DNA of 64,000 nt from a virus (lineage: Duplodnaviria; Heunggongvirae; Uroviricota; Caudoviricetes). The position numbers and the translations under genes were made by a program. Location of the stretch: IMG/VR virus record IMGVR_UViG_2974578479_000001, positions 1 to 64,000 of that record, one strand, 5' to 3'. The notes beneath the pieces are model-generated. The model was not told the DNA's origin. It was given only the letters and a program-made list of their open reading frames with translations, and made no database searches. Below are positions 1 to 64,000 of the stretch, one piece after another (position 1 is the stretch's first letter; the number at the start of each line of letters is the position of its first letter).

Positions 1-268
1 TATCTTCTCCTGAAGTCGCATAGTACTTCGCACTTTTTGTTCAATCACCTTTTTTCAAAAATGATAACATGAGGTTCAGGAAAATCTCGAAGGTACGTGA
101 AATCAAATACGAATTCTAAAAAATTTGGAGTACCCTCTAGACTTTTGCTGAGATCTCGAAAGTACAAAAAACATATAAGGAAGTGTGAAAATTTTATTGA
201 ATTGAAAAGTACTAAAGTACTATTTTGTACTGTACAAAAACACAGTACAAAAATAATTGAAATAAACC

Positions 269-297
269 TTGACGTGTTACGGGTGCGATGATATGAT
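269..297 (+). promoter_or_regulatory. sigma70-like promoter (TTGACG-17-TATGAT)
   Basis: -35 ttgacg at 269-274, 17-nt spacer, tatgat at 292-297, read directly. Confidence 0.35.
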
Positions 298-599
298 GTA
301 TCCAAGATGAAGAACACAGTTAGACACCTCTCTCGTTGACGCTGTATGAATCATCTAGTACTGGTAAATTGCCGAACATGTTGCCGCATGTTATTACTGG
401 TACGAAATGGGAATACCTTATTCCCCTCTCTCTTTCTCGCTATTGTTCAGGAAAGATTTAGTACTGAACGTTTGGAAGTAATACTGTACTAATTAGGATA
501 GTACTTTATAATGAGTTCTCATGAAGCACACGCTGGAGAATATATTATAAAGTACTATCCTTTTTTGCATTGTACTATAAGAATAGAAGTACTAATAGA

Positions 600-850
600 G
601 TACCTTTTGATAGATGGATTTGTTTTGAGGATTGTCTGAATTTTGGGTGTACTATCCCTATCTGCTATCTATAGATGGATAGACTTCTGGCAGTGTAGAT
701 GTATAGATGGTTGAACGTCTAGACAGCTATCCTTCTGGATGGCTAAATGTCTAAACGTCTAGATGGTTATCCCTCTAGACGTTTAGACGGCTAAACGCTT
801 TTTTGTCTCGATTTTCCATTAGTTCCCCTTCCGCGTCTAGTTAGTACTAG
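600..850. repeat. iteron-like cluster: repeated TAGATGG, GTCTAGAC and CTAAACG motifs
   Basis: tagatgg/ctggatgg at ~612, 673, 705, 735 and 761; gtctagac palindrome at 717; further copies at 755-798. Confidence 0.5.
749..788. repeat. perfect 15-bp inverted repeat gtctaaacgtctaga / tctagacgtttagac with 10-bp spacer
   Basis: arms 749-763 and 774-788 are exact reverse complements. Confidence 0.8.
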
Positions 851-993
851 GCAGAATCGAAAGGCGTCTTTTCGTGTTGACAGAGCTATATTATCAAACG
901 GTGATCCATTATGCAAGGACTTTTTTCAATAAAAATAAATTTGACAAGTACAAACCGGATGTAGTACTATAATCACAACAAAGAGAAATTTGT

Positions 994-1100
994 AGCCCAC
1001 AGGGTGCCAAGATCCGCCTATTAGAAATTAAATGCGAATGAGAATCATTACCGATTATAGGTATATCTCCGCACCCTCTGGGGTATCCGATTTCTCTCGT
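994..1100. repeat. ~100-bp dispersed repeat, copy 1 (cccacagggtgc ... gcaccctctggggtatccgatttctctcgt)
   Basis: near-identical to 3711-3800; contains inverted arms agggtgc/gcaccct. Confidence 0.7.
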
Positions 1101-1474
1101 CTGAAATAATAATATCAAAGTACGGTATAAGATGCAAGGACTTTTTTCGTTTTTGGTGAAAATAGTTTAGATCGTTGTATACGTATAAAGGAAAGGATTT
1201 AAAAGGCGAACAGGTGGAGCGGGGCGAAGGTATAGCAGTACTATATAAACGCCGTGTAATGGTTCCTATGCGTTATATGGGGGCATGTACACGTATAAAG
1301 GAAAGAAACCCTATAGCAGAACTATTTTTAAAAAGATTGCATAAAGTACTTGCAAAGGTTTACCGGTATGATAATATCTATCTCGTCAACACGACACCGC
1401 TCTTTAACAACTTGCTAGACAATTACTTGATAGTGATTCTTCTCTTTAGAAATAAGGAAAAAGAAAAACAAAAA

Positions 1475-1507
1475 AGTACTTGACGGCAAGAATGGAAAGT
1501 GTAGAAT
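1475..1507 (+). promoter_or_regulatory. early promoter cassette (AGTACTTGAC ... TAGAAT)
   Basis: aaaaagtacttgacgg with tagaat 16 nt downstream. Confidence 0.5.
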
Positions 1508-1690
1508 GTTGGTTATCGAAAGGCGGTAAGGTTCGCCGGATGATAGGAAAGGGTAACAGGGCAAAATAAAGTACTGTTGCAGTGTGAAGCCGAAAGTGCT
1601 CACATAGCCTTATAAAAAGCTTACTAACTGTAAGTGACCTATCTACCGCCTAACGATGTAACAAAAAAAAGTTTCTAAGAAGTTGAAAAA

Positions 1691-1725
1691 AGTACTTGAC
1701 GGATAGAAACGAAACGTAGTAATAT
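1691..1725 (+). promoter_or_regulatory. early promoter cassette (AGTACTTGAC ... TAATAT)
   Basis: aaaaagtacttgacgg, -10 taatat; strong SD plus ATG of 1786 gene downstream. Confidence 0.5.
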
Positions 1726-1785
1726 GTGTTCAAGCCAAACGGCTTACCAAACAAACTAAACTAAACTTTTAAGAGGATTTAAATC

Positions 1786-2448
1786 ATGACTACTACCAAC
1801 AACGCAAAAGCTACCCGTATCACTCTGAACTCTATCGTTTTCGCCAATGCTCCAGTACTGGCAGCGGTTGCCGAAGGTGAACAGCCTCACAGCAAAGAAG
1901 TGATCGCACAGCACAAAACGCAGGTAGCGGAGTTTGTTGCAAATCAGGGTAAAGAACTGGCTGGCTACATTCTCGGCAAAGTTGAAACTCCTGACGTGAT
2001 TCTGGCGATTCTGAAAGAAGCCGCTAAACAGGTTCCAGCAGTACAGAAACAACTGGCAGAAGAAGCCGCGAAAGCCGAAGCCGAAGCCGCAGAACAGCGT
2101 AAAAAAGACGCTGAAGCCGCTGAAGCGAAACGCAAAGCTGATGAAGAAGCACTTCAGGCCGAAAAAGATAAAATGTTGAAAATCCTTACTGATAGCGGTC
2201 TGGATCTGGAAATCGCTCAAACAATGGTCGCCGCTGGCCTGAAAGCAAAAGCACCAGCGAACGCACCGAAAAACAGCTACGAACGTGTAGCGGTAACGGT
2301 GAACGGCAAAGGTTATGATGTTCCAGTACGTGGGAACATGAGCGAAGAACTCAAAGCACTGGTTGCTAAAGACGGCGGGGATCGTGAAGCGTTTATCAAC
2401 AAATACCGCAACGAACCAGCAGCAGCAGAAACCAACACCGCCGAATAA
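1786..2448 (+). CDS. hypothetical protein, Ala/Glu/Lys-rich helical middle (TolA-like low complexity), higher-GC island
   Basis: 220 aa; SD aagagga; two upstream promoters; enterobacterial-like codons (ctg, gcg, ccg), ~48% GC versus ~33% in flanks. Confidence 0.6.
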   Translation: MTTTNNAKATRITLNSIVFANAPVLAAVAEGEQPHSKEVIAQHKTQVAEFVANQGKELAGYILGKVETPDVILAILKEAAKQVPAVQKQLAEEAAKAEAEAAEQRKKDAEAAEAKRKADEEALQAEKDKMLKILTDSGLDLEIAQTMVAAGLKAKAPANAPKNSYERVAVTVNGKGYDVPVRGNMSEELKALVAKDGGDREAFINKYRNEPAAAETNTAE

Positions 2449-2467
2449 TATCACGGCGTAACGCGAA

Positions 2468-2487
2468 AGGGGGCTAACTAGCCCCCT
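2468..2487 (+). other. stem-loop agggggctaactagccccct (no T-tract)
   Basis: inverted repeat directly after the stop of the 1786 gene. Confidence 0.4.
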
Positions 2488-2593
2488 AAGCCGTTCTAAC
2501 AGTACTGTAATGCAATCGGTTATAGTACTGTTAAAACGTCTTAGAAACGATCCTACGGCGTTCTACAATACCTTTTAAGTGAGAGTAAACGCT

Positions 2594-2863
2594 ATGGAAC
2601 TAAAACCCATTACAGAGTTAATTGATCCTAAGACAAGGATCGCCCGAACGATGAACGCCGTTAGCAGTACTAAACAAGTATATAGCGGCTATCTGGCTTT
2701 TGTTGTAGATGGGAAGATCCTACAACGCAGGATCTATGATATGGCTTATAATAGCCTTTATGATTCCTGTATGTATATAGTACACCAGAAAGTTAACTAT
2801 GCCGTTAATGTATCAGCTAAACCAATTAGCGGGGCGTTTAACGTTGAATCCTTAACTGTATAA
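2594..2863 (+). CDS. hypothetical protein (90 aa)
   Basis: ATG preceded by the ttaagtgagag SD motif shared by many genes in this window. Confidence 0.5.
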   Translation: MELKPITELIDPKTRIARTMNAVSSTKQVYSGYLAFVVDGKILQRRIYDMAYNSLYDSCMYIVHQKVNYAVNVSAKPISGAFNVESLTV

Positions 2864-2887
2864 AATTTAGTTTTATTCATAAATATT

Positions 2888-2920
2888 AAAGCCGCATTGA
2901 TTGGCAATGCGGCTTTTTAT
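2888..2920 (+). terminator. rho-independent terminator (12-bp stem aaagccgcattg/caatgcggcttt plus T-tract)
   Basis: perfect 12-bp inverted repeat then ttttt. Confidence 0.7.
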
Positions 2921-2933
2921 TATGGATTAAATT

Positions 2934-3350
2934 ATGAGATACAAAAAACCTGAACCTGTACATATTCAAGGAAAATGCGTTATAGATGGATGTGACAATC
3001 TACAGGCAGTAGTTAAGAAAAACAAATACGGGGCAAGATGTAGCAAACATCTTAGGGAATCATGGCAATCTAATGATCCTGAAATTTTCAAGTATCTAAG
3101 CATTAAAAGATTATATGGATTAGAAAAAGAAGACTATATAAAACTACTTGAATCACAAGATTATAAGTGTTACATTTGTGGAACTCATCAAGATGATAGC
3201 AGTAGAGAAGTATTATATGTTGACCATGATCACAGTACTAATAAAATCCGTGGGTTATTATGTCATCATTGTAATACTGGTATAGGAAATTTTAAAGATG
3301 ATCCTGAACTCTTACAACGTGCTATAGACTATTTGAAAAAGAATTCATAA
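2934..3350 (+). CDS. HNH homing-type endonuclease
   Basis: CYICG...VDHDHSTNKIRGLLCHHCNTGIGNF matches the HNH/Cys-box pattern; very AT-rich; lies between a terminator and a promoter cassette. Confidence 0.8.
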   Translation: MRYKKPEPVHIQGKCVIDGCDNLQAVVKKNKYGARCSKHLRESWQSNDPEIFKYLSIKRLYGLEKEDYIKLLESQDYKCYICGTHQDDSSREVLYVDHDHSTNKIRGLLCHHCNTGIGNFKDDPELLQRAIDYLKKNS

Positions 3351-3383
3351 AGTACTTGCAATAAGTTTTAAGTACTGTAGAAT
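3351..3383 (+). promoter_or_regulatory. early promoter cassette (AGTACTTGCA-N-AGTACTG-TAGAAT)
   Basis: agtacttgca at 3351-3360; tagaat at 3378-3383; followed by tatcgaaac and an SD. Confidence 0.55.
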
Positions 3384-3415
3384 ATCCTATATCGAAACAA
3401 CACGGAGTAAATGAA

Positions 3416-3640
3416 ATGAGATTAAGTAAACTGTTAGCGGAGTTGTCGAAGGTTGCAGAACTTGCGAAAGTACACGGCAACAATGATCCTGATATTTCTT
3501 TTTGGCATGATGAAATTGAAACAATCGAACATTTAGAAGTATCATTCCCGCAAGATCTGGATGATGCCAGAATACCGACTAAAGTACTATCGGAAACTGA
3601 GAAAGGAAACTTTTCATTTAGATTAGTACTACCAGAATAA
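3416..3640 (+). CDS. hypothetical protein (74 aa)
   Basis: ORF with promoter cassette and SD ggagtaaatgaa. Confidence 0.5.
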   Translation: MRLSKLLAELSKVAELAKVHGNNDPDISFWHDEIETIEHLEVSFPQDLDDARIPTKVLSETEKGNFSFRLVLPE

Positions 3641-3653
3641 TCTTTACAAAAAT

Positions 3654-3672
3654 GGGGTTGACAGCCAGCCCC
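3654..3672 (+). promoter_or_regulatory. PeSL-like stem-loop promoter (ggggttgacagccagcccc)
   Basis: TTGACA -35 sits inside the hairpin stem. Confidence 0.5.
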
Positions 3673-3710
3673 AAAAAATGCAATAATACATACAAGCCAG
3701 AGAAATGGCG

Positions 3711-3800
3711 TAACCCACAGGGTGCGGAGATCCGTCCGTAGAAAATTCAGTACTTAATAGATATATCTCGGCACCCTCTAGGGTATCCGATTTCTCTCGT
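3711..3800. repeat. ~100-bp dispersed repeat, copy 2
   Basis: acccacagggtgcggagatccg ... atatctcggcaccctctagggtatccgatttctctcgt, near-identical to 994-1100. Confidence 0.7.
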
Positions 3801-3875
3801 ATGTAAGTATTATGCCAGTACTGAGAACATAAAGCAAGGGGTAAACGAAAATAAAAATTAAAATTCAAATGAAAA

Positions 3876-3908
3876 AGTACTTGCAATAAGTTTTAAGTAC
3901 TGTATACT
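3876..3908 (+). promoter_or_regulatory. early promoter cassette
   Basis: aaattcaaatgaaaaagtacttgcaataagttttaagtactgtatact. Confidence 0.55.
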
Positions 3909-3941
3909 TACCTTATCGAAACAAATGAAAGGATTTAAGAA

Positions 3942-4334
3942 ATGGAACGTAATGAGCAATTTAGATTAGTTCTTGAAGTACTGGAAAACATGCAAGCTTG
4001 TTTAGATGTTAATGATACATATGTGCGTATCAATGGCAAGAGTTTTAATCTTAATCGACATGCGGGGATCTGCTGGCATGTTCTCGCCTATACTCCTAAT
4101 TGTGATTATTCAGGTATTGGATTAGAATATCTTTCCCCGTTGTTTGTTAGTATGGGCTTACATCCTCATTATCCTGTAGAAATGCAGATCGTTAATGAGT
4201 TAGATCAAGCCCGTTGGATTCATTCAAAAGCAACAGATCAATATAATATCTTGGGCGAAGAAGGAAAGATCCGCCGTAAACTTTTAAAGGATTTGATTCA
4301 GTACTATAAAAAAGAGCTTGCAATTGAATCGTAA
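3942..4334 (+). CDS. hypothetical protein (130 aa)
   Basis: ORF with cassette and SD. Confidence 0.55.
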   Translation: MERNEQFRLVLEVLENMQACLDVNDTYVRINGKSFNLNRHAGICWHVLAYTPNCDYSGIGLEYLSPLFVSMGLHPHYPVEMQIVNELDQARWIHSKATDQYNILGEEGKIRRKLLKDLIQYYKKELAIES

Positions 4335-4373
4335 TACTGTATAATCTTTTATATCGAAACGGGAGATATAAAC

Positions 4374-4829
4374 ATGAATAGCAAACAATTTCAAGATGCA
4401 ACAAGAGAAGCCTTTTTGAAGTACTTCCCAAATGGCTACATTGGTATTTCTAAATTGTCAATGGGTGGCGGTTGTGGTATCTTCTGCGGGTTGATTGGTG
4501 ACATTAATGATGTGGGCGGGAAGATCCGCATGAATGACCCAATGACAGTACGGGCATTCATTCATGATAATTTTTCATTCAATGACGAAACAACTGATTT
4601 AGAAAATGTTGTTATCGAATTCGATGGATCTTGGATCTCAGTACTTCCAGACAATCCACACAATTATTGTCAATCTCACAAGGTGCCTAGTCGCAAGATT
4701 AACGCGGAGCCGTCAAAGGCATTAATTAATCTAGATAAGTACTTTAAACGCTTAAAGGATAGTGTAACCGAACAAGCTGGATTGAATCGTATTATTCAGC
4801 AAGAAAAGATCCCCGCAAAATATCTATAA
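4374..4829 (+). CDS. hypothetical protein (151 aa)
   Basis: ORF with SD gggagatataaac. Confidence 0.55.
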   Translation: MNSKQFQDATREAFLKYFPNGYIGISKLSMGGGCGIFCGLIGDINDVGGKIRMNDPMTVRAFIHDNFSFNDETTDLENVVIEFDGSWISVLPDNPHNYCQSHKVPSRKINAEPSKALINLDKYFKRLKDSVTEQAGLNRIIQQEKIPAKYL

Positions 4830-4904
4830 TATATTGTCAAAAGTACTTGCATTAAAGTAGCGAGTACTTTACAATAAGTTATCGTTAAGTGAGAGGATAA
4901 AGAA

Positions 4905-5039
4905 ATGTCAAAGATTGAAGCTTACAGAGCTGGACTGTATATGTTTACAGTACCGCCAGTAATAACCAATGCATGGAAAGAAGTTGATTGGATCAATTTT
5001 ATTGATTCTAATGGTAAATGGATGGTTCCTGTAGTATAA
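4905..5039 (+). CDS. small hypothetical protein (44 aa)
   Basis: promoter cassette at ~4838 and SD ttaagtgagaggataaagaa; below the 60-aa cutoff of the ORF track. Confidence 0.35.
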   Translation: MSKIEAYRAGLYMFTVPPVITNAWKEVDWINFIDSNGKWMVPVV

Positions 5040-5059
5040 TTTTAATTGAGGGTTTTACT

Positions 5060-5464
5060 ATGTTTTTACATGTACGCGGTTTTACTGGTGGCGGTTTCTG
5101 CTTTATGATTGATGATAAAGCGGTATCAGTACAAGAAGCATTGATCCAGAATGGTGGACGTTTCCACAAGGCAACAATAAACGCATTGAACAGAAAGAAC
5201 CTTTTTAATGAGTCAGATTTAAAAGCCTTTGAAGAACTGGCAGAATCATTACATAAAGGTTTAACTCCTTGCTCCATTCGTCAAATCCTGCGTAATGATT
5301 ACGGGATCGACGTGTTAAAAACTGATTACCTTATGTTATCATCTTCTCAGGTTGAAGATCTTAAAACTGTTTATAAGTACGCACGTTATAAGGTTCCTAC
5401 TGGTTACGTATTGAAACATTCGCCAATGTACTACTTTTACAGGTATTTGAGCAACGTAAAATAA
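5060..5464 (+). CDS. hypothetical protein (134 aa)
   Basis: ATG after SD ttgaggg; in frame with track ORF 5018. Confidence 0.5.
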   Translation: MFLHVRGFTGGGFCFMIDDKAVSVQEALIQNGGRFHKATINALNRKNLFNESDLKAFEELAESLHKGLTPCSIRQILRNDYGIDVLKTDYLMLSSSQVEDLKTVYKYARYKVPTGYVLKHSPMYYFYRYLSNVK

Positions 5465-5474
5465 TTTAAAAAAG

Positions 5475-5494
5475 GGGTTGACTACGGTCAGCCC
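5475..5494 (+). promoter_or_regulatory. PeSL-like stem-loop promoter (gggttgac-tacg-gtcagccc)
   Basis: perfect 8-bp stem containing TTGAC; TATAGT downstream. Confidence 0.5.
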
Positions 5495-5516
5495 TTTGTA
5501 GTACTATAGTATCACT

Positions 5517-5545
5517 CCAGCGAAATGGACTAACCCTATAGGGTG
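5517..5545 (+). repeat. conserved leader element CCAGCGAAATGGACTAACCCTATAGGGTG (contains the 12-bp palindrome ACCCTATAGGGT)
   Basis: recurs at 13245, 14246, 15717, 16274 and 18649, and inverted at 9105. Confidence 0.7.
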
Positions 5546-5588
5546 CAGTACTGTACCTATAATAAAAATAATTAAAATTCAAATGAAA

Positions 5589-5621
5589 AAGTACTTGCAT
5601 TAAGTATTGAGTCATGTATAA
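5589..5621 (+). promoter_or_regulatory. early promoter cassette
   Basis: agtacttgca ... tataat, then tatatcgaaag. Confidence 0.55.
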
Positions 5622-5653
5622 TCATTATATCGAAAGCAAACGAGGGTTTAACG

Positions 5654-5830
5654 ATGGATCATTTAATCGCATTACTTAATGCCTTTTGTATTAAACATGG
5701 GTTAGTACCTGCTAGTGCCGATGAAATGCTAATCGAGTATTTGGGTACTGAAAATCCAGATCCTGCAATTGTTTCATGGTTACAAGCTTATATTGTACTG
5801 TGGGACTGTACAAGTGATTTAGGTTTATAA
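5654..5830 (+). CDS. small hypothetical protein (58 aa)
   Basis: cassette-driven; SD cgagggtttaacg. Confidence 0.4.
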   Translation: MDHLIALLNAFCIKHGLVPASADEMLIEYLGTENPDPAIVSWLQAYIVLWDCTSDLGL

Positions 5831-5837
5831 TTAAAAT

Positions 5838-5870
5838 AGTACTTGCAATAATATGTGAGTACTGTATAAT
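5838..5870 (+). promoter_or_regulatory. early promoter cassette
   Basis: agtacttgcaataatatgtgagtactgtataat. Confidence 0.55.
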
Positions 5871-5902
5871 TCTTTATATCGAAAACAAACGAGGATTTTT
5901 AA

Positions 5903-6331
5903 ATGAGAACATGTAAAGAGTGTGGTAATGATTGCAAGTTAGATGTAAATGAAATCGTTAACCATTATAACGAAGATGGGAAGATTGATTTTGATTTAGA
6001 TGCGGATCATGTTGCAATTCCTGAATTAACTGACGCCGAAAGTAATATGCAAAATCCAGTACTACAAACGGCATTCAATTTTTCCGGTGATGTACCTTGC
6101 ATTAACTACGGGTTCAATTCTGGCGGTTATGAAAAATTCCAGTACTTTATTTGTGCTGATGGTGGTTGTTTAGGGATCGGGACTGTAATTAATGAGTTCC
6201 ATAAAGTGAACTTTAATGATCCTGATGATAAGCAATGGTATATCGTAGGGGTTGAAGTTAATTACGAAAATACCGAACTGGTAGACGATCACACAGGGGA
6301 TTATATACCAGCAGCGTACAGCGAAGACTAA
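5903..6331 (+). CDS. hypothetical protein, N-terminal CxxC-x3-C cluster (142 aa)
   Basis: ORF with cassette and SD. Confidence 0.55.
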   Translation: MRTCKECGNDCKLDVNEIVNHYNEDGKIDFDLDADHVAIPELTDAESNMQNPVLQTAFNFSGDVPCINYGFNSGGYEKFQYFICADGGCLGIGTVINEFHKVNFNDPDDKQWYIVGVEVNYENTELVDDHTGDYIPAAYSED

Positions 6332-6342
6332 ACAAAAGCAAC

Positions 6343-6364
6343 GGGGATCTATGATCCCCTTTTG
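6343..6364 (+). terminator. rho-independent terminator (ggggatctatgatcccc plus tttt)
   Basis: hairpin plus T-tract. Confidence 0.65.
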
Positions 6365-6371
6365 AGGTTAT

Positions 6372-6635
6372 ATGAATTTACATTATTGTACCAGAAAATT
6401 AGTTGTTGCTTTTGATTGTAGTTCTGATAAAATACATTGTGTAATATACAGAAAGGGAACACCACGCACAGATCACTGGAAAGTACTGCAATCCTATACA
6501 ATGCAACGTAAAGGGTTTAAGCACCTTGATAGCAGGACACAAAAGGCATGTTTACGGCAAGTACTTAAAGTTATGCGTAATCGTATTACACAGGCGTTAC
6601 ATGTTGCATTAACTACCAAGGATATGATAGAATGA
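6372..6635 (+). CDS. hypothetical protein (87 aa)
   Basis: ORF after the terminator; weak SD. Confidence 0.3.
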   Translation: MNLHYCTRKLVVAFDCSSDKIHCVIYRKGTPRTDHWKVLQSYTMQRKGFKHLDSRTQKACLRQVLKVMRNRITQALHVALTTKDMIE

Positions 6636-6799
6636 AATATGTAATCTATTATGATCGCAGTACTAAAAGCTGGTGGGGGTACTGGATTGATGAAAATGAA
6701 AATCAGTTAGGTGAAGCTGTTTTTGAATATCAAAAAGAAGATTGCCTGATACTCTTAGGAGAAGTCAAGGAAAATCGTCGGAATTTAATTCAAAAATAA
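6632..6799 (+). CDS. small hypothetical protein (55 aa)
   Basis: ATGA overlap with the upstream ORF. Confidence 0.3.
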   Translation: MKYVIYYDRSTKSWWGYWIDENENQLGEAVFEYQKEDCLILLGEVKENRRNLIQK

Positions 6800-6807
6800 A
6801 TGAAAAA

Positions 6808-6841
6808 AGTACTTGCATTCATGTGAGTACTTTTATATAAT
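6808..6841 (+). promoter_or_regulatory. early promoter cassette
   Basis: agtacttgcattcatgtgagtacttttatataat. Confidence 0.5.
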
Positions 6842-6923
6842 ACTTATATCGAAGCGAAATTCGAATTACCCACAGGGTGCGGAAGTATATCTATGAAAAA
6901 AAGAATTAAAATTTAAATGAAAA

Positions 6924-6956
6924 AGTACTTGCATTAGATCGTGGGTATGGTATTAT
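6924..6956 (+). promoter_or_regulatory. early promoter cassette
   Basis: agtacttgcattagatc...tattat; leader cgagaggcggcaatctcttg follows. Confidence 0.5.
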
Positions 6957-7028
6957 AACTACATCGAGAGGCGGCAATCTCTTGATAATAAAATTAATCA
7001 AATAACTTTTAAGAGAGAGAGAAAGAAA

Positions 7029-7337
7029 ATGTCTAAAGCAAACGCGATAGTATCAATGATCCCTGCAATCCTTCCAATCGGTACTGTAGTAGTTCACAAT
7101 TACGGTGAGTTCACTCATGGTACTATTGTATCTCATGTTGCTGGTGATATGTATGAAGTATTCTTTCCTGTTGAGAACTGCCCACAAACTGCAAAGTACT
7201 TGACAGATGTTAATTCTCGTGTACGTAAAATTCGCTTAAATGCTGGTTTCTTTATCAGCCGCTTTAACTCACTTGCAGCAGTTAAGATCGCACAGAAGAA
7301 GTATAAAAAATCTGGTCTAAAACTGGAAAGCATTTAA
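7029..7337 (+). CDS. hypothetical protein, paralog of the 13449 gene (GT(V/I)VVHNY..F.HGTI motif)
   Basis: 102 aa; leader identical to that of the 13449 gene. Confidence 0.6.
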   Translation: MSKANAIVSMIPAILPIGTVVVHNYGEFTHGTIVSHVAGDMYEVFFPVENCPQTAKYLTDVNSRVRKIRLNAGFFISRFNSLAAVKIAQKKYKKSGLKLESI

Positions 7338-7356
7338 TTGTAAAATCATTCACAAA

Positions 7357-7390
7357 AGTACTTTACTTATATCGTAGAGTACTTTATAAT
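7357..7390 (+). promoter_or_regulatory. early promoter cassette variant
   Basis: aaagtactttact...gagtactttataat. Confidence 0.45.
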
Positions 7391-7417
7391 GAAGTTACTA
7401 AGTAAGAGGAAGCAAAT

Positions 7418-7486
7418 ATGAAACGCTGGCATGAAGTACTGTTGTTTGTTTTGTTTATTCTAGTAACTTGTGTAAATTTTAATTGA
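7418..7486 (+). CDS. tiny hydrophobic peptide (22 aa)
   Basis: strong SD taagtaagaggaagc; below the track cutoff. Confidence 0.3.
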   Translation: MKRWHEVLLFVLFILVTCVNFN

Positions 7487-7496
7487 GAGGTTCAAA

Positions 7497-7736
7497 ATGT
7501 CTTTATATAAAGTAGTAGTGAACTGTATTAGTGTTGGTATGGCTGGATCTCATACTCTGTTAGTATCTGGCGACTTCCCGCATATTAACGAGGCAAGAAT
7601 AGGGATCAATGAGTGGGTGGCTAATGAGTACGCCGGACGCTTAGATGTTAACGTAACATTTTTGAATCATTCAGATCAAATTTATGTTACTGATTTGAAA
7701 TCATCAGATTATGATAAAGTTATTATAATGCGTTAA
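7497..7736 (+). CDS. hypothetical protein (79 aa)
   Basis: SD ttaattgagagg. Confidence 0.5.
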   Translation: MSLYKVVVNCISVGMAGSHTLLVSGDFPHINEARIGINEWVANEYAGRLDVNVTFLNHSDQIYVTDLKSSDYDKVIIMR

Positions 7737-7749
7737 CTATATTATCAAA

Positions 7750-7783
7750 AGTACTTGCAAATAGAAAGCGAGTACTTTATAAT
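7750..7783 (+). promoter_or_regulatory. early promoter cassette (identical copies at 8379 and 8672)
   Basis: atcaaaagtacttgcaaatagaaagcgagtactttataatg. Confidence 0.6.
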
Positions 7784-7812
7784 GAAGTTACTTTAAGTAA
7801 GAGGATATTGAA

Positions 7813-8061
7813 ATGGAAAATGAAAACATCTTTACAGTTTATGCTTCTGATGCAATAACTCATATTCATCTCATTGATGAAATTGTAAAAAATACGGATG
7901 TAAAAGTATTAGCAGGTAATCCTGATGGATTATACTTTGATAATCCAATGCCGTCTATTACTTACAGTACCAAATTGAGTTATGAAGATTTTAAGAAAGT
8001 ACTGGACAAATCAACCTCATTAGAGTATCATCTTTGTATAGAAGAAGATTGGTATTGTTAA
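7813..8061 (+). CDS. hypothetical protein (82 aa)
   Basis: cassette plus SD taagtaagagga. Confidence 0.5.
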   Translation: MENENIFTVYASDAITHIHLIDEIVKNTDVKVLAGNPDGLYFDNPMPSITYSTKLSYEDFKKVLDKSTSLEYHLCIEEDWYC

Positions 8062-8086
8062 TTAACTTTTAAGTGAGATATAATTA

Positions 8087-8365
8087 ATGAAAGCATACGA
8101 ACATAAGACCATGACAGTTGCGGATCTTATTGCTAAACTGGAAAGTACTTATCCGAACAAAAACGCCGTTATCGTTGCGGATCTATGGGACGAAGACGAT
8201 ATTCGTGAAGTAGCACAGGATATTAATATTCAGCTCGACCGCGAAGAATGTCGAGTAGTAGCGGCTTATCTGGATGATACCGCAGATAAGACAAATGGTT
8301 ATAATGATGATAACATTAAGTTAGCCATTTATCAAGTTATTAATTTGGGGCTTATTAATCCTTAA
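8087..8365 (+). CDS. hypothetical protein (92 aa), acidic
   Basis: SD ttaagtgagatat. Confidence 0.5.
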   Translation: MKAYEHKTMTVADLIAKLESTYPNKNAVIVADLWDEDDIREVAQDINIQLDREECRVVAAYLDDTADKTNGYNDDNIKLAIYQVINLGLINP

Positions 8366-8378
8366 CTATATTATCAAA

Positions 8379-8411
8379 AGTACTTGCAAATAGAAAGCGA
8401 GTACTTTATAA
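8379..8411 (+). promoter_or_regulatory. early promoter cassette (duplicate of 7750)
   Basis: ~52-bp identity with 7735-7790. Confidence 0.6.
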
Positions 8412-8455
8412 TGAAGTTATTGAATCGGTACTTATTAACTAAGAGGAAGTATATC

Positions 8456-8659
8456 ATGGCTCAAAAAGATCGTCGTTACTCAATCGCAGCGGAGTTTACT
8501 GGTCACATCTCAGGTAAGAAGCGTCAAGTACTGCGTTTCTGTGGGGCGTGGGTATCGGATCATGCGACACGTCACGAAGCCGAACAAGAGATCGTGAAGT
8601 GGAAAGCCAGCGGTGAAGTGCCAGCGGTTCAATCACAGCGTGTGCTGGTGGAAGCGTAA
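8456..8659 (+). CDS. hypothetical protein (67 aa), high-GC island
   Basis: ATG after SD aagaggaag; ~52% GC; enterobacterial-like codons. Confidence 0.5.
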   Translation: MAQKDRRYSIAAEFTGHISGKKRQVLRFCGAWVSDHATRHEAEQEIVKWKASGEVPAVQSQRVLVEA

Positions 8660-8671
8660 CACATTATCAAA

Positions 8672-8705
8672 AGTACTTGCAAACAGAAAGCGAGTACTTT
8701 ATAAT
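8672..8705 (+). promoter_or_regulatory. early promoter cassette (third copy)
   Basis: aagtacttgcaaacagaaagcgagtactttataat. Confidence 0.6.
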
Positions 8706-8735
8706 GGTTACACTATTAAGCGAGAGGATAACAAA

Positions 8736-9035
8736 ATGAAATTTACAGTACAAGTCGAAGGGGTTGATCTAGTATCAGTCGTCGCAGCATTACAAGAAGC
8801 CGCTAGACTTATCGAAGATGGGAATACTTCTGGATTTGATCGCAATGAAGATGGGAATTTTTATTTTGTAGAAGGCGATCAGCACTTGTTTAGTACTGGT
8901 GAATCATGTACAATGCATACAGCCGTTTGTGAAATGGTGGAGCGTTTACATCAAGGCAATCATTATGATAATGATGAAGAACGCCAAGCTGATATTGATG
9001 TGATGAATAAATTACAAAAAGTAACAGGACGCTAA
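8736..9035 (+). CDS. hypothetical protein (99 aa)
   Basis: SD agcgagaggataac; in frame with track ORF 8613. Confidence 0.5.
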   Translation: MKFTVQVEGVDLVSVVAALQEAARLIEDGNTSGFDRNEDGNFYFVEGDQHLFSTGESCTMHTAVCEMVERLHQGNHYDNDEERQADIDVMNKLQKVTGR

Positions 9036-9104
9036 ACAACAAGTACTGGTGAAATATCCAGTACTGTTTTTATATACAGCTTATTCTTTAATAGATACAT
9101 TTTC

Positions 9105-9133
9105 GCACCCTGTGGGTCAAAGACATTTCGCTG
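9105..9133 (-). repeat. inverted-orientation copy of the conserved leader element (gcaccctgtgggt ... catttcgctg)
   Basis: its reverse complement reads cagcgaaatg...acccacagggtgc. Confidence 0.55.
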
Positions 9134-9201
9134 TCTATGAAGTAATAATACAGTACTTTGGTAATGGTGTCAAGGATTAAATTAAAATTAAAACGAAAAA
9201 A

Positions 9202-9234
9202 AGCACTTGTAATTATCATGAAGTACTGTATAAT
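9202..9234 (+). promoter_or_regulatory. early promoter cassette variant (AGCACTTGTA)
   Basis: aagcacttgtaattatcatgaagtactgtataat, then tatatcgaaac. Confidence 0.5.
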
Positions 9235-9261
9235 CTTTTATATCGAAACGGGAGAATTGAA

Positions 9262-9564
9262 ATGAGATTTATCAAATACAGTTTGATAGGGTATTTTGGT
9301 ATGGCATTACTTTGTACTGTACTTGTTATATGCATTACCGTATTAGATTATTTCGATGGTGATTTTTACGTTAAGTATATCTATGGTGGTTCACATTTCC
9401 GTTATGTAATTGAATTTGCATTACCTGCGATATTTAAAAGTAGCTTTTGGGGCGTACCGTGTGCTATACTGATAGCATGGAAAGTTGATCGTATCAAGGC
9501 GAATGATATGAATAACCATAGTATTAAAGAGCATTTTGGTATTGACTACCCTAAGAAGGATTGA
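9262..9564 (+). CDS. hypothetical membrane protein (100 aa)
   Basis: hydrophobic segments; cassette. Confidence 0.5.
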   Translation: MRFIKYSLIGYFGMALLCTVLVICITVLDYFDGDFYVKYIYGGSHFRYVIEFALPAIFKSSFWGVPCAILIAWKVDRIKANDMNNHSIKEHFGIDYPKKD

Positions 9565-9568
9565 TATA

Positions 9569-9814
9569 ATGAGTACCACATTGAAAGCACTGGTGTCATT
9601 ATTATTCTCAGTACTGTTAACATTCTTATTGTTAACGGAGGCAAGAGATGGTATTGTATGGCGGTTAACAATGTTAGCATATGAAATTGAAGATACTTGG
9701 TATTCTTTCTTGACATATGGTAGCAATGGAGTGTATGCTATATTTCTAGCTGGTATACTTTACATTTTATTTTGTTTAATGTTTGCTATGATGGGAGATA
9801 GTCATGAGAGTTGA
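9569..9814 (+). CDS. hypothetical membrane protein (81 aa)
   Basis: two or three hydrophobic helices. Confidence 0.45.
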   Translation: MSTTLKALVSLLFSVLLTFLLLTEARDGIVWRLTMLAYEIEDTWYSFLTYGSNGVYAIFLAGILYILFCLMFAMMGDSHES

Positions 9815-9959
9815 GCCAATCAGTAGAATTATTAAGTTAGCAAGTAGTACTGTCAAGAATGAATATCCAAAAAATATTGTTGACAGTACTAGCAGTACGG
9901 TGGTACATTTAGGTCAAGCAACAACGGGTTGCTATGATAAACGTGGTTTAATAAAATGA
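9804..9959 (+). CDS. small hypothetical protein (51 aa)
   Basis: short ORF overlapping the upstream gene by 11 nt. Confidence 0.25.
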   Translation: MRVEPISRIIKLASSTVKNEYPKNIVDSTSSTVVHLGQATTGCYDKRGLIK

Positions 9960-9968
9960 GGATTGAAA

Positions 9969-10826
9969 ATGGGTAAGCATATTTTTTGGGGTTGTTTAGG
10001 TCTGATTGGTTTACTCGCCATTGGTGCGTTGTTGGGTTCGTTCTATACGGTAGACCAACAGGATCGCGGTGTAGTACTGACTAACGGTAAAATTACAGAA
10101 ATTGCCGAGCCTGGTCTGAACTGGAAAAAGCCATTCGTTACATCGGTGATTGAAATTCCGGTAACTGGTCAGAACAAAAGTTATCCGAACCTTAAAGCGT
10201 ACAGCCGCGATCAGCAGCCAGCAGATATGTCGGTTTCCGTATCGTTCGCCGTTCCAGCGGGTAAAGTGGGGGATCTGTATAGTACTTTCGGGACTATCGA
10301 AAACCTTACAGCACGTGTAATTGACCGTCAAGTACCGCAAGCAGTTGAAAACGTATTTGGTCAGTTTAACGCGATTACCGCCGTACAGGATCGTAATAAG
10401 TTAGTTACTAACTTAAACATTGCAATTAAAAAGGCGATGGAAAACTATCCGGTAATTATTGAATCGGTACAGGTTGAAAACTTATCATTCAGCCCTGCAT
10501 ATGAAAAATCAATTGAAGAACGTATGCAAGCCGAGATCGCAGTAACTAAACGTGAGCAGGACTTTGCACAGGCTAAGATCTCAGCGTCAATCACGGTTGC
10601 CAACGCACAGGCCGAAGCTGATAGCCAGCTTGCTAAGGCAACAGCAGCAGCGAAAGCGACACGCCTACAGGGTGAAGCTGATGCAGCAGCAATTAAGGCG
10701 AAGTCTGACGCACTTAGCAATAATCCGCAACTCGTACAGTTGGCAGCAGTTGACAAGTGGGATGGCGTACTACCTACACAAATGGTTCCAGGTTCTACCG
10801 TTCCATTCGTGAATCTCAACAAGTAA
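9969..10826 (+). CDS. SPFH/band-7 (prohibitin/HflC-like) membrane protein
   Basis: N-terminal TM then SPFH-like core; SD tgagga; higher GC. Confidence 0.8.
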   Translation: MGKHIFWGCLGLIGLLAIGALLGSFYTVDQQDRGVVLTNGKITEIAEPGLNWKKPFVTSVIEIPVTGQNKSYPNLKAYSRDQQPADMSVSVSFAVPAGKVGDLYSTFGTIENLTARVIDRQVPQAVENVFGQFNAITAVQDRNKLVTNLNIAIKKAMENYPVIIESVQVENLSFSPAYEKSIEERMQAEIAVTKREQDFAQAKISASITVANAQAEADSQLAKATAAAKATRLQGEADAAAIKAKSDALSNNPQLVQLAAVDKWDGVLPTQMVPGSTVPFVNLNK

Positions 10827-10839
10827 TTGTATCACAAAA

Positions 10840-10866
10840 AGCCTCGCAAAGTCGAGGCTTTTTTAT
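10840..10866 (+). terminator. rho-independent terminator (agcctcg-caaagt-cgaggct plus tttttt)
   Basis: hairpin plus T-tract. Confidence 0.75.
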
Positions 10867-10895
10867 TATGAACACAATTAAAATTCAAATGTAAA

Positions 10896-10930
10896 AGTAC
10901 TTGTATTATATGGCTGATGCTGTTATAGTA
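10896..10930 (+). promoter_or_regulatory. early promoter cassette variant
   Basis: aaaagtacttgtattata...tatagt, then tatatcgaag. Confidence 0.5.
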
Positions 10931-10958
10931 CTTATATCGAAGCACAGGAGATAATCAA

Positions 10959-11138
10959 ATGGAAGAACTATTGAAGTACTGGAAACGGTTTAGTAATGTA
11001 CCAGTTAATAACAATGACGAGATAGAAGAAAGTTTCTTGCATTTTGATATTGGTACTGATAGAATAGATGTGTGGCAATGGTTCGAAGCACAACATTCTG
11101 ATTTTAATGTATCAAAACTTTTAAGTGGAGAAGTATAA
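10959..11138 (+). CDS. small hypothetical protein (59 aa)
   Basis: SD cacaggagataatc; TAATG overlap with the next gene. Confidence 0.4.
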   Translation: MEELLKYWKRFSNVPVNNNDEIEESFLHFDIGTDRIDVWQWFEAQHSDFNVSKLLSGEV

Positions 11139-11563: not shown

Positions 11564-11574
11564 TTATTACCAAA

Positions 11575-11609
11575 AGTACTTGACAGAAGTTATCGAGTAC
11601 TTTATAATA
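11575..11609 (+). promoter_or_regulatory. early promoter cassette
   Basis: agtacttgacagaagttatcgagtactttataat. Confidence 0.55.
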
Positions 11610-11639
11610 ATCACATCAACCACACAAGAGGCACTAAAA

Positions 11640-11960: not shown

Positions 11961-11972
11961 CAGTAACCGATT

Positions 11973-11997
11973 GGGGGCGTTATATGCCCCCTTAATT
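11973..11997 (+). terminator. terminator-like hairpin gggggc-gttatat-gccccc
   Basis: 6-bp GC stem; weak T-tract. Confidence 0.45.
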
Positions 11998-12012
11998 AAG
12001 TGAGTACACTAC

Positions 12013-12775: not shown

Positions 12776-12780
12776 AAAAA

Positions 12781-61928: not shown

Positions 61929-61958
61929 TTGAAACAGCAGTGAAAATTGTGGTATAAT
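61929..61958 (+). promoter_or_regulatory. sigma70-like promoter with extended -10 (TTGAAA-18-TGgTATAAT)
   Basis: read directly. Confidence 0.55.
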
Positions 61959-61988
61959 GTACCCATAACAAAAGAGAAGGAAACGAAG

Positions 61989-62243
61989 ATGGCTAAGCAA
62001 AACGATAAAGATGTAAAAAGTACCCGCAAAGAACTTATGTACAAAAACGAGCAGCTTGAGAATCTATTAGAGCTACGCCGCAAGGGTATTCTAACCCGTC
62101 AGCAGTTCCGTCTATTGACCTTTGATAAAGGTCTACAGGGCAGCACCAAGGGTTCTCCACTAATCGAAGTGTTCGAGTTGGAGAAACAAGGAAAGGGTAA
62201 ACCAGTCCTTGTCCAAAAAGTTCGTCAATGGACTCGCACTTAA
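61989..62243 (+). CDS. small basic protein (84 aa), enterobacterial-like codons
   Basis: SD agaaggaaacgaag. Confidence 0.5.
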   Translation: MAKQNDKDVKSTRKELMYKNEQLENLLELRRKGILTRQQFRLLTFDKGLQGSTKGSPLIEVFELEKQGKGKPVLVQKVRQWTRT

Positions 62244-62331
62244 TTTCTGGCCTGTTTTGATATAAACAACATAAATAAGTTTACAATAATAAAAATATTT
62301 TTGACTCCATGTTGTTTATATTACATTCTTT

Positions 62332-62357
62332 TAAGGCCACGCAATGTGGCCTTTTTT
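62332..62357 (+). terminator. rho-independent terminator (aaggccacgcaatgtggcctt plus tttttt)
   Basis: hairpin plus T-tract. Confidence 0.8.
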
Positions 62358-62371
62358 ATTGGAAAAATAAA

Positions 62372-63097
62372 ATGATTAACAAAGAAGAAGTAAGTAAAGC
62401 AGCAAGAGAAATTGTTCATCACATTATTCTAGATAATATCTATGGATATTTCGAAGAATTAGGTACACCAAATATTGTTGTGTACGGTTCATTCATCGAA
62501 ATGACTTCTGGTTTTGATGTGAAGCCAAATGATATTGATGTTACGATTGTACTTGATGGGGAGTTACCTGAACCACGTCATAAATCATTCTATTTAAACT
62601 TTGTTGAACTACCCATTAATGTAGAGTATATGAGTCGTGAATCATTTCAAAAAGAATTGCATTCATTTCAACCAAAATACTTTATGTGCACAGCTACTCC
62701 TGAACTAAGTGAAGAAATTGATTCTGTATGGAAGAATAAAGAAATTCACGAAGTACGTTCTGGTATAAGTTCAGTAACTTCCAAAGCCTTTGATAAAGGT
62801 CGTAAAAAACTACTAGTTGAAGATGACTATGATGAAGTACTAGGATTAAAAAATATCTATCATGCGTTTAAGTTTCCAATTTATGCTAAATGGTATTTCT
62901 ATCCAGAATTGGCTGAACGTGATTATATTACAGACATTCAGTACTTGAATGAGATTCATAAAGGAATTTATGAGGCTTACAATAATAGTACTGGCACATT
63001 AGAAGAACGTTGTGCGGCGGTTGTACAATTTGCTAAACCACATCATTTATCATTGATGACTGGCTTCCGCATACTATTTCCTAAAAAGGTAGAATAA
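62372..63097 (+). CDS. minimal nucleotidyltransferase (pol-beta superfamily, GS-x10-DxD)
   Basis: VVYGSFIEMTSGFDVKPNDIDVTIV; 241 aa. Confidence 0.6.
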   Translation: MINKEEVSKAAREIVHHIILDNIYGYFEELGTPNIVVYGSFIEMTSGFDVKPNDIDVTIVLDGELPEPRHKSFYLNFVELPINVEYMSRESFQKELHSFQPKYFMCTATPELSEEIDSVWKNKEIHEVRSGISSVTSKAFDKGRKKLLVEDDYDEVLGLKNIYHAFKFPIYAKWYFYPELAERDYITDIQYLNEIHKGIYEAYNNSTGTLEERCAAVVQFAKPHHLSLMTGFRILFPKKVE

Positions 63098-63309
63098 TGA
63101 TAGTGTTTATAATTATTGGAATGGTTTTATTATTTCTATTTGGCCTCGCTGCTATTATTGGAAGTGTTATTATTCCAATGTATGTATGTGCATGGACAGG
63201 AAAAGTATCAAAGGGTGAGATTGCAATCAGTATTATAATGTTTGTAATTGGTGCATTTTCATGGTACTATGTGTTTTCTCATATGAGTCTCAACATAGGT
63301 ATTAGTTAA
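63097..63309 (+). CDS. small membrane protein (70 aa, 2 TM)
   Basis: hydrophobic; ATGA coupling. Confidence 0.5.
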   Translation: MIVFIIIGMVLLFLFGLAAIIGSVIIPMYVCAWTGKVSKGEIAISIIMFVIGAFSWYYVFSHMSLNIGIS

Positions 63310-63446
63310 TGGGTGAAATTATTTTTGCATTAATTGAATGTTTAGTTGAATTAATGTGTATGGGTGCAGCAGGATTTTGGATTGTTATGTGTATTTTAGC
63401 AATTGCTGCTGTTGCTGGTTTTGGTTATTGGGCATATATTTGTTAA
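63309..63446 (+). CDS. small membrane peptide (45 aa)
   Basis: TAATG coupling; hydrophobic. Confidence 0.35.
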   Translation: MGEIIFALIECLVELMCMGAAGFWIVMCILAIAAVAGFGYWAYIC

Positions 63447-63522
63447 GGAATTAAAATGATATTACTTATAAAAGGGCGAATGACTTTCCGATTATGAATT
63501 TTTAATCATAATAAGGAGGACA

Positions 63523-64000
63523 TATGTTCTTTAAGCAAAAATTTAAAATCTGCTATGATAATGGCAATTTCGTAGAAGTTGATGATTTATTAGGATATAT
63601 TGGTTACACTTACGGTGCAGCCGAAGCATTCTACCAAAGAATGAAATTCACTGTTAAAATTGATAAAAGTAGCTTCTGGTCATATTCTCATTCAAGTATG
63701 AATGATTTGGTTGAAACATTTTACTTATTCACTGAAAACAATATCATGATTTCTCCTGAATTGTTTAAAGGTGAGTACTTAAAATATCGTAATCTAGAAA
63801 CTCAAATTTGGCACAGAAATCGTTTATATTCAATGAAACAATGGCGTCATTTCAATTATCGTCGCAGTCATACGACTACCTATGATCGTCGTATGGAAAC
63901 TATCGCAGAACGCCGAGCTATTGCTGGTGTTGTGAAAGAAGAAGGTGAACCAGAATTTCGTGGTCGCCGCCGTTGTATTCCTAATCCGTGGGATGATATA
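63523..64000 (+). CDS. hypothetical protein, 3'-truncated by the window edge
   Basis: SD taaggaggacatatg; ORF runs off the end. Confidence 0.5.

Follow-up and report, generated by a model that had tools for sequence, protein, structure and literature searches.

Several systems rely on a short DNA word that occurs far above chance throughout a genome, within genes and between them, in many individually replaceable copies that form a distributed signal for one reader; among the best described are the Chi octamer GCTGGTGG, the FtsK-orienting polar sequences (KOPS), and the DNA uptake sequences of Neisseria and Haemophilus. These words are asymmetric and orientation-dependent, span 8-12 nt, and are read by RecBCD, FtsK, and ComP, respectively. 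Phages, for their part, are known for losing short palindromes to escape restriction. The window analyzed here, a stretch of 64,000 nucleotides, matches bases 1-64,000 of Serratia phage BF (KY630187 / NC_041917, 357,154 bp) at 100% identity and in the same coordinates, and the word in question is the 6-bp palindrome AGTACT, the site of ScaI/Eco255I, whose core GTAC is the site of RsaI/CviQI. In contrast to Chi, KOPS, and the uptake sequences, AGTACT is a palindrome that reaches an approximately 11-fold excess in a phage clade, and polarity is seen only in one block of Asteriusvirus, in which the related word AGTACA prevails. Phage BF belongs to the genus Eneladusvirus and is a Rak2-like jumbo myovirus, of which T4 is a distant relative; its gene products include a replisome of the T4 type, a late sigma factor of the gp55 type, a type II topoisomerase of its own (with GyrB-like and T4 gp52-like subunits), and three methyltransferases (BF_0063, BF_0129, and BF_0151). 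The reading proposed below, to which a probability of about 40% is assigned, is that AGTACT is recognized by a factor peculiar to this clade, one that reads double-stranded DNA with two-fold symmetry and would act both as a promoter regulator and in the genome-wide marking or organization of the phage DNA.

The window contains 286 copies of AGTACT, compared with 21.4 or 18.2 expected from zero-order and first-order Markov models, respectively, and 646 copies of GTAC compared with 200 expected, corresponding to one per 99 nt. AGTACT among the 6-mers, AGTAC/GTACT among the 5-mers, and GTAC among the 4-mers lead the z-scores of the window; every one of the other fifteen NGTACN hexamers occurs at most 72 times, and the three other last bases of AGTACN account for 72, 36, and 27 copies. 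In the whole BF genome, pieced together from eight segments for all genome-wide counts, 1,072 copies are present where 98 are expected, a 10.9-fold excess and one site per 333 bp. The density amounts to 6-7/kb in the first ~24 kb, falls to ~2-3/kb in the structural and replication core, and returns to 3-4/kb toward the right end; the longest gaps devoid of AGTACT do not exceed 2.5 kb and all lie within highly constrained core genes (portal, scaffold/capsid, polymerase, ATPase). The original prediction, which rested on hand counts, had claimed a strong over-representation of GTAC and AGTACT, and this proves stronger than was stated (286 against ~20 in the window, 1,072 against 98 in the genome). 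Its figure of one GTAC per 60-120 nt agrees with the 8 copies at 26341-26820 (one per 60 nt) and the 4 copies at 46021-46500 (one per 120 nt), and its estimate of ~25 GTAC and ~17 AGTACT at positions 1-1750 becomes 29 and 15 on recounting, ~25-fold over expectation.

The excess of AGTACT is due to selection at the DNA level and is not a codon artefact. The 208 genic copies of the window compare with 53.9 ± 6.5 after a shuffle of synonymous codons that keeps the proteins and with 20.7 ± 4.3 after a permutation of codons within genes, so that the codon-aware nulls leave a 3.9-9.7-fold excess. These copies are found in all three reading frames (79/38/91), each ~4-fold above the synonymous null, and the density peaks in intergenic DNA (8.9/kb, versus 3.7/kb in genes). 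In the region of the DNA-polymerase core genes, 81 copies are observed against 16.8 after the synonymous shuffle and 13.6 after codon permutation. The excess in the core genes is almost purely synonymous, and in the small accessory early genes the protein sequences themselves have moved to accommodate the sites (208 versus 54 versus 21), a pattern that would be given by a uniform selection on site density limited by protein constraint. Codon usage and codon-pair usage are ruled out as the source by the two shuffles, in the window as in the core-gene region: the ratio does not return to ~1 after codon correction, and the excess persists in each frame. The positive selection on DNA that the original prediction had suspected finds support in this three-frame excess, in the richness of non-coding DNA, in the status of AGTACT as the lone strongly enriched palindrome, in its clade-wide occurrence, and in its conservation above controls. 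It is highly improbable that the palindrome has no function and is a by-product of mutation bias, of codon or codon-pair usage, or of the purge of other palindromes. AGT, ACT, GTA, and TAC are indeed common codons in an AT-rich genome, and a maximal-order Markov model predicts 248 copies in the window against the 286 observed, a near-fit that arises because the 5-mer sub-words of this model consist of the very same sites; nevertheless, a by-product would account neither for the codon-corrected excess in all frames, the intergenic maximum, and the conservation above control hexamers, nor for the absence of bias in T4 at equal GC content, nor for the exclusion of AGTACT and the enrichment of AGTACA in one block of one genome, which lies beyond any genome-wide mutational process. 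A conversion sink similar to very-short-patch repair is also unlikely, since the one-mismatch neighbors of AGTACT are not depleted (0.5-3.2-fold).

Other palindromes follow the opposite course. Twenty-six of the 64 palindromic hexamers have no copy in the 357-kb BF genome, including CTTAAG (91 expected), GCATGC (43 expected), and CTGCAG (38 expected), while GATATC occurs once against 104 expected and the tetramer GCGC never against 217 expected; in the window, the words with zero copies comprise GCGC (~50 expected), GATATC, CTTAAG, GGTACC, CGTACG, and GAAGAG. The purge could reflect the avoidance of host restriction or, more speculatively, of a phage-encoded nuclease that cuts host DNA. AGTACT, although a classical type II palindrome like those purged from the BF genome, departs from restriction-site avoidance in being 10.9-fold over- instead of under-represented, and it is the sole strongly enriched palindrome of BF, the runner-up being CACGTG at 1.9-fold. 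Among the 6-mers of the window, the most under-represented are TAAATA (13 versus ~73-86 expected) and TATTTA (11 versus ~57-69 expected), whose scarcity fits the avoidance of stray T4-type late promoters (TATAAATA).

The same two traits characterize the relatives of BF. Within ±20 kb of the DNA polymerase, the observed/expected ratio of AGTACT is 7.2 in BF, 7.1 in fHe-Yen9-04, 7.4 in GAP32, 7.5 in CBB, 5.5 in Munch, 5.8 in 121Q, and 9.1 in RaK2, and in all seven phages AGTACT ranks first among the 6-mers of this region. GCGC has no copy in any of these AGTACT-rich samples and is normal in the outgroups Vibrio phage 2.275.O, Atu_ph07, and PA5oct, in which the ratio for AGTACT is 0.6, 0.2, and 0.2, respectively. 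The trait follows polymerase identity, being present in all phages at 71% or more and absent at 51% or less, with no intermediates; among 80 uncultivated viral contigs, a 4-6-fold bias is found in every one whose polymerase is at least 75% identical and in none at 42% or less, and no sister lineage enriched for another palindrome was found among them. T4, which has the GC content of BF and shares E. coli as a host, contains 12 copies against 8.8 expected, and a 50-kb sample of the E. coli K-12 chromosome contains 3 against 4.8 expected, which rules out a general bias driven by the host; the clade-restricted pattern, with T4 and E. coli unbiased, therefore identifies the trait as a synapomorphy of the enterobacterial Rak2-like clade. 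The phage DNA carries one AGTACT per ~110-330 bp and the E. coli sample one per ~17 kb, an approximately 50-fold difference per kb.

Individual sites are conserved above chance and turned over at the same time. In protein-guided alignments of 43 orthologous genes with BF as the reference, AGTACT sites are kept at 60% in fHe-Yen9-04, 51% in GAP32, 35% in Munch, and 18% in RaK2, compared with 39%, 28%, 16.5%, and 11.5%, respectively, for hexamers of the same composition, that is, a 1.5-2-fold better conservation. Over the same aligned orthologues, BF has 71 sites and RaK2 has 79, with only 13 common to both; hence, the density is maintained and single positions are replaceable.

The anatomy of the site points to a symmetric reader. 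Around the genic copies, no information is present outside the hexamer other than in the directly adjoining bases, which are mirror-symmetric: position -1 favors C and avoids G, and position +6 favors G and avoids C. The extended element is therefore an 8-bp word, (C/A/T)AGTACT(G/T/A), with CAGTACTG found 72 times against 31 expected and GAGTACTC found 5 times against 31 expected. This symmetry of the flanks argues for duplex DNA that is read with two-fold symmetry rather than for a coding bias. The spacing of the sites is somewhat more even than in a Poisson process (coefficient of variation of 0.84-0.93 versus 1.0 ± 0.06), and the metagene profile has peaks 60-80 nt upstream of the start codons and directly after the stop codons, with no peak in the ribosome-binding zone. 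The reader would probably be a homodimeric binding protein or enzyme acting on the extended element, with selection holding its sites at the maximum density allowed by coding constraints, and the ~1,000 dispersed copies would serve to mark or organize the phage DNA genome-wide.

A host protein in the role of the reader, either the nucleoid-occlusion factor SlmA or the host RNA polymerase through a promoter-context element, is very improbable. The 12-bp SlmA-binding site (SBS) GTGAGTACTCAC has AGTACT as its core and requires G and T at positions 1-2, and A-C at positions 11-12, for binding (PMC3020112), the hosts of the clade are all Enterobacterales, and some of the promoter sites proximal to the -10 element read GTGAGTACT. 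The sequence AAAAAGTA fits the pattern of the UP-element proximal subsite, as would suit the host RNA polymerase. Against this, the outer bases of the SBS are at chance in BF (GT.AGTACT.AC occurs 2 times versus 3.4 expected, the half-site flanks 65 and 36 times versus 63 expected, and no exact SBS is present) and G at -1 is disfavored, which rules out SlmA-binding sites; moreover, T4 and the E. coli sample lack the bias, and most sites are intragenic and far from promoters.

At a class of early promoters, the position of the palindrome is fixed with respect to the -35 and -10 elements and is kept across relatives, as for a component of sigma-70 promoters. These promoters consist of a double-site cassette, aaaAGTACT-TG(C/A)AA ... 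(a/g/c)AGTACT(g/t/a)TAtAAT, in which the first site overlaps the -35 element, sharing its last T, and the second site, 20-21 bp downstream, abuts the -10 element. BF has 10-11 such cassettes, all on the + strand and within the first 17 kb (Table 1). The terminal repeat of CBB has seven copies of this architecture, fEgEco12 has four, and 121Q has one or more; the architecture is kept with a spacing of 20-22 bp in Eneladusvirus, Mimasvirus, and Asteriusvirus, where the spacer sequence drifts and both palindromes are fixed. At these promoters, the reader proposed above would find two sites two helical turns apart, over the -35 and beside the -10 element, and would function as an operator-binding regulator that, most simply, shuts off or tunes early transcription. 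A second class of early promoters has its TTGAC within a terminator-like hairpin and carries 0-1 AGTACT, the offset of which varies, and AGTACT is missing from many promoter-like matches; hence, the two copies of AGTACT that the original prediction ascribed to each early promoter cassette are a feature of one class (10-11 copies) and not of the second. Its idea of a transcription-factor box fares similarly, since it fits this one conserved class and leaves ~1,000 other, mostly intragenic, sites unexplained: the palindrome is not confined to regulatory regions, and 206 of the 286 copies in the window are fully inside genes. Fused terminator-promoter cassettes are located in the window at 5478, 12784, 13206, 13797, 14208, 15001, 15679, 16235, 17684, 18102, and 18612, each composed of a G+C-rich hairpin (e.g., aaaGGGGTTGACnnnnGTCAGCCCCttt) with the -35 TTGAC in the 5' arm, followed by a T-run and a TATAGT/TATACT -10 element. 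As for the terminal repeat, CBB and fEgEco12 have a direct terminal repeat (early region) whose homologue in BF is the first ~19.5 kb, and the dense block of BF extends ~3.6 kb beyond this homologous boundary, so that the coincidence with the repeat of the relatives is only loose; a strict tie between the two is unsupported, as CBB lacks a sharp step at the repeat boundary. The genome paper of CBB describes RpoD-like promoters with UP-like elements and mentions neither AGTACT nor palindromes.

A block of different character is found in Asteriusvirus. In fEgEco12, the 8.6 kb at 29,016-37,647, just past the terminal repeat, contain 89 GTAC and not a single AGTACT; AGTACA occurs there 46 times versus 4.2 expected (~11-fold), and its complement TGTACT is absent. 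The enrichment of AGTACA extends over the three frames (17/15/12), so AGTACA does not represent a synonymous decay of the palindrome, and it retains the outer flanks of the latter, with C at -1 and G at +6. The homologous block of 121Q (15001-23231, ~82% identical) also contains 46 AGTACA and no TGTACT, with AGTACT missing from its central 6 kb and present six times across the full 8.2 kb, and 21 of the 39 aligned positions are conserved between the two phages. The block seems to end at an intergenic gap and may be a single operon; no orthologue of it was found in BF, where only a mild dip occurs at 24-30 kb. The block shows that the last base of the element is functionally important and that directional use of the whole element, or of each half, is possible. 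In fEgEco12, a 5.8-kb array of tandem, overlapping open reading frames (ORFs) of ~70 codons lies at 20857-26616, just past the terminal repeat, with no AGTACT and no enrichment of GTAC, and looks like recently expanded or acquired DNA that does not yet bear the signature of the genome.

Several points weigh against a symmetric reader with a double role. The polar AGTACA block is the chief observation that a simple symmetric-reader model leaves unexplained, and the functional unit may accordingly be a directional 5-mer (AGTAC) or a half-site, which a simple symmetric dimer would not predict. In addition, no helical phasing exists among the AGTACT sites, for which only the 3-bp codon periodicity is detected; no DNA-binding regulator of the helix-turn-helix or ribbon-helix-helix type was recognized among 30 early proteins or the neighbors of the sigma factor; and the placement at promoters could partly reflect duplicated cassettes together with a general pressure to fit sites into free sequence.

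A further reading, which is unlikely, is that AGTAC is a directional signal used on single strands or by a strand-specific enzyme, such as a site-specific nickase target, a primase start, or a Chi-like element, and the palindrome is its cheapest two-strand form. In T4, clamps that load where the non-transcribed strand is nicked activate late transcription, and the primase sites of T7 are pentamers; a nickase acting at AGTAC would create entry points for clamp loading, recombination-dependent replication, or late transcription. Besides the exclusive use of AGTACA in every frame, with the flanks of the palindrome and with conservation between fEgEco12 and 121Q, this reading can draw on the mildly even spacing with no long gap and on the one-flank variants of BF, of which, genome-wide and after codon control, AGTAC[A/C/G] on the sense strand reaches ~1.55-fold and [C/G/T]GTACT ~1.2-fold. 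Compared with known polar signals, AGTACT is likewise over-represented with genes included, and strand bias is seen in the AGTACA block of Asteriusvirus and, in BF, only as this weak sense bias of the variants, the palindrome itself having no polarity. On the other hand, position 6 shows a strong preference for T almost throughout and the flanks are symmetric, neither of which a 5-mer needs; paired nicks 4 bp apart at each palindrome would break the genome; and no nickase was identified, the only early nuclease found being BF_0003. This gene (window 2934-3350) codes for an endonuclease VII-type nuclease in the early region (PF02945, E = 6e-25). Near-identical copies exist only in two BF records, the best match elsewhere is below 60% identity, and it is absent from the Erwinia phages that are 99.6% identical. 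BF_0003 is probably a mobile nuclease insertion; being private to BF, it is ruled out as the reader of AGTACT. A doubtful extension of the same thought would make AGTACT a sequence-encoded "self" label, by which a phage whose DNA is ordinary and unmodified would distinguish its genome from that of the host and the half-sites of which are read directionally by a clade-specific factor, for example through strand-specific nicking or loading that seeds replication, recombination, or clamp-dependent late transcription; the palindromes would then be bidirectional, the AGTACA operon of Asteriusvirus would be one-directional, and the early-promoter sites would control the early-to-middle switch.

The original prediction had also considered a DNA-modifying protein. 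AGTACT, or its core, as the target of a phage modifying enzyme such as a methyltransferase, with a role as an epigenetic self-mark or in protection, is rather unlikely. BF codes for three methyltransferases, one of which, BF_0151, resembles M.PvuII, an N4-cytosine methyltransferase of a palindromic hexamer, over its full length (closest solved relative 1boo, E = 6e-19), and an adenine methyltransferase of the PF05869 family, in BF the "Dam-like" BF_0063, is present in every AGTACT-rich genus as the sole phage methyltransferase family found in all of them. Moreover, if the A of AGTAC on one strand were modified, AGTACA would be a permanent one-strand site, as would suit the polar block. However, BF_0151 occurs only in Eneladusvirus, Mimasvirus, and close kin and BF_0129 is confined to Eneladusvirus, while RaK2, 121Q, and Munch are equally AGTACT-rich without either; these two enzymes are thereby excluded as the clade-wide cause. 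The causes put forward by the original prediction (a binding or modifying protein, a transcription-factor box, an organizing signal) are reasonable candidates as a list. The PF05869 homologues are just 41-45% identical between genera, which is no more than they share with their counterparts in Lactococcus or Geobacillus phages, and BF_0063 is a weak candidate for a writer at AGTACT; the sigma-70-family factor BF_0507, also present in all AGTACT-rich genera, is highly diverged too, and the co-occurrence of BF_0063 and BF_0507 with AGTACT is no stronger than that of any clade-specific gene. Furthermore, the status of methylation target alone gives no reason for enrichment, and ten ordinary type II enzymes give the predicted cuts in the DNA of a relative (PMC13070987), which indicates that the clade is free of global hypermodification.

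The preferred gate site of the phage type II topoisomerase (A^GTAC^T), to which decatenation or relaxation of the 357-kb genome would be recruited, is a quite improbable identity for the palindrome. The gate core of pneumococcal topoisomerase IV is a^GNNC^t (PMC3814380), and AGTACT fits it with G at +1, C at +4, A/T at -1/+5, and a 4-bp stagger, in what is a geometric sequence match only; BF has the GyrB-like and gp52-like subunits and, in addition, the ParE-like BF_0026. Conversely, T4 has a related enzyme and no AGTACT bias, the preferences of type II topoisomerases are usually loose and do not amount to a strict hexamer, and both the promoter cassette and the polar AGTACA block would be unexplained. 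BF_0026 (window 12013-12255), a small protein of the early region, has a toxin domain of the ParE-like type (PF24732, E = 9e-13), which belongs to a gyrase-poisoning family; its presence is notable in a phage that carries its own type II topoisomerase.

The features of the window are listed in Table 1.

Table 1. Coordinates of the AGTACT-related features in the 64,000-nt window of phage BF.
Feature	Position	Strand	Details
AGTACT set	1..64000	.	286 sites: 206 fully genic (3.7/kb), 80 intergenic (8.9/kb)
High-density block	1..23600	.	6.7 sites/kb vs 3.3/kb beyond; best single change-point 23,602
Non-coding left end	1..1785	.	15 AGTACT, 29 GTAC
Double-site early promoter cassette AGTACTTGCAATAAGTTTTAAGTACTGTAGAAT	3351..3383	+	site 1 over -35, site 2 abutting -10
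Double-site early promoter cassette	3876..3908	+	
Double-site early promoter cassette	4842..4875	+	
Double-site early promoter cassette AGTACTTGCAATAATATGTGAGTACTGTATAAT	5838..5870	+	
Variant double-site cassette (AGTACT-TTACTT ... AGTACT-TTATAAT)	7357..7390	+	sites 21 bp apart
Double-site early promoter cassette	7750..7783	+	near-identical copies at 8379 and 8672
Double-site early promoter cassette	8379..8412	+	
Double-site early promoter cassette	8672..8705	+	
Double-site cassette	11575..11608	+	perfect TTGACA-N17-TATAAT promoter
Double-site early promoter cassette	14319..14351	+	
Double-site early promoter cassette	16695..16728	+	
Local palindrome dip	24000..30000	.	AGTACT ~2.5/kb; one-flank variants AGTAC[A/C/G], [C/G/T]GTACT rise
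BF_0063, PF05869 "Dam-like" adenine methyltransferase	31476..32015	+	

Further elements were observed at the genome ends and in the early region. The right end of the BF genome, outside the window (357105-357154), has three AGTACT in its last 50 bp, including AGTACTTGACAGTACT, and the non-coding left end displays, by eye, imperfect short repeats at 650-800 (ctatagatgg / gtctagac / ggctaaa...) that could serve the terminal repeat as signals for packaging or replication. A terminator-like hairpin at 9042-9065 has arms that each start with AGTACT (AGTACTGGTGAAATATCCAGTACT). The BF genome itself contains 18 copies of the E. coli Chi octamer on the + strand and 12 on the - strand, where ~1 would be expected on each; the + strand copies of the window are at 6669, 8644, 11383, 15996, 16390, 17957, and 58238, six of them within the first 18 kb, and their orientation tracks the gene strand, with a coding cause (CTG-GTG) possible.

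No prior report of an enrichment of AGTACT or GTAC in phages or jumbo phages was found in the searchable literature, whose coverage leaves out many journals; within the literature searched, there appears to be no description of this enrichment, of the complete purge that other palindromes have undergone, or of the polar block. A genome that holds one palindrome at ~1,000 copies and has 26 others erased, in a lineage that kept this trait through the divergence of at least five genera infecting Klebsiella, E. coli, Salmonella, Cronobacter, Pectobacterium, Erwinia, Serratia, and Yersinia, points to an abundant sequence-specific factor that would be central to the biology of Rak2-like jumbo phages. 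These phages are candidates for therapy and biocontrol and their regulation is almost unknown, so that AGTACT offers a direct experimental handle on it and could show by what means a relative of T4 that has no modified bases tells its own DNA apart or organizes it.

Among the systems in which one protein binds both regulatory and dispersed sites, the gp71 repressor of mycobacteriophage L5 recognizes ~30 asymmetric 13-bp operator or "stoperator" sites, mostly intergenic and in one orientation. By analogy, the factor proposed for BF would likewise be a phage DNA-binding specificity employed at early promoter operators and at many sites scattered through the genome; BF differs in being a virulent jumbo phage, the ~1,000 sites of which are palindromic hexamers located mostly within genes. 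The sites of SlmA and Noc are palindromes dispersed over a replicon as well, and the core of the SBS is AGTACT itself, but E. coli has ~50 such sites against the ~1,000 of BF, in which the essential outer positions are not enriched. Lastly, TF1 of the Bacillus phage SPO1 prefers phage DNA by virtue of hydroxymethyluracil, occupies many sites, early promoters among them, and influences early transcription; in BF, in contrast, the distinguishing feature is a specific hexamer and not hydroxymethyluracil DNA, and no homologue of TF1/HU was linked to AGTACT in this analysis.

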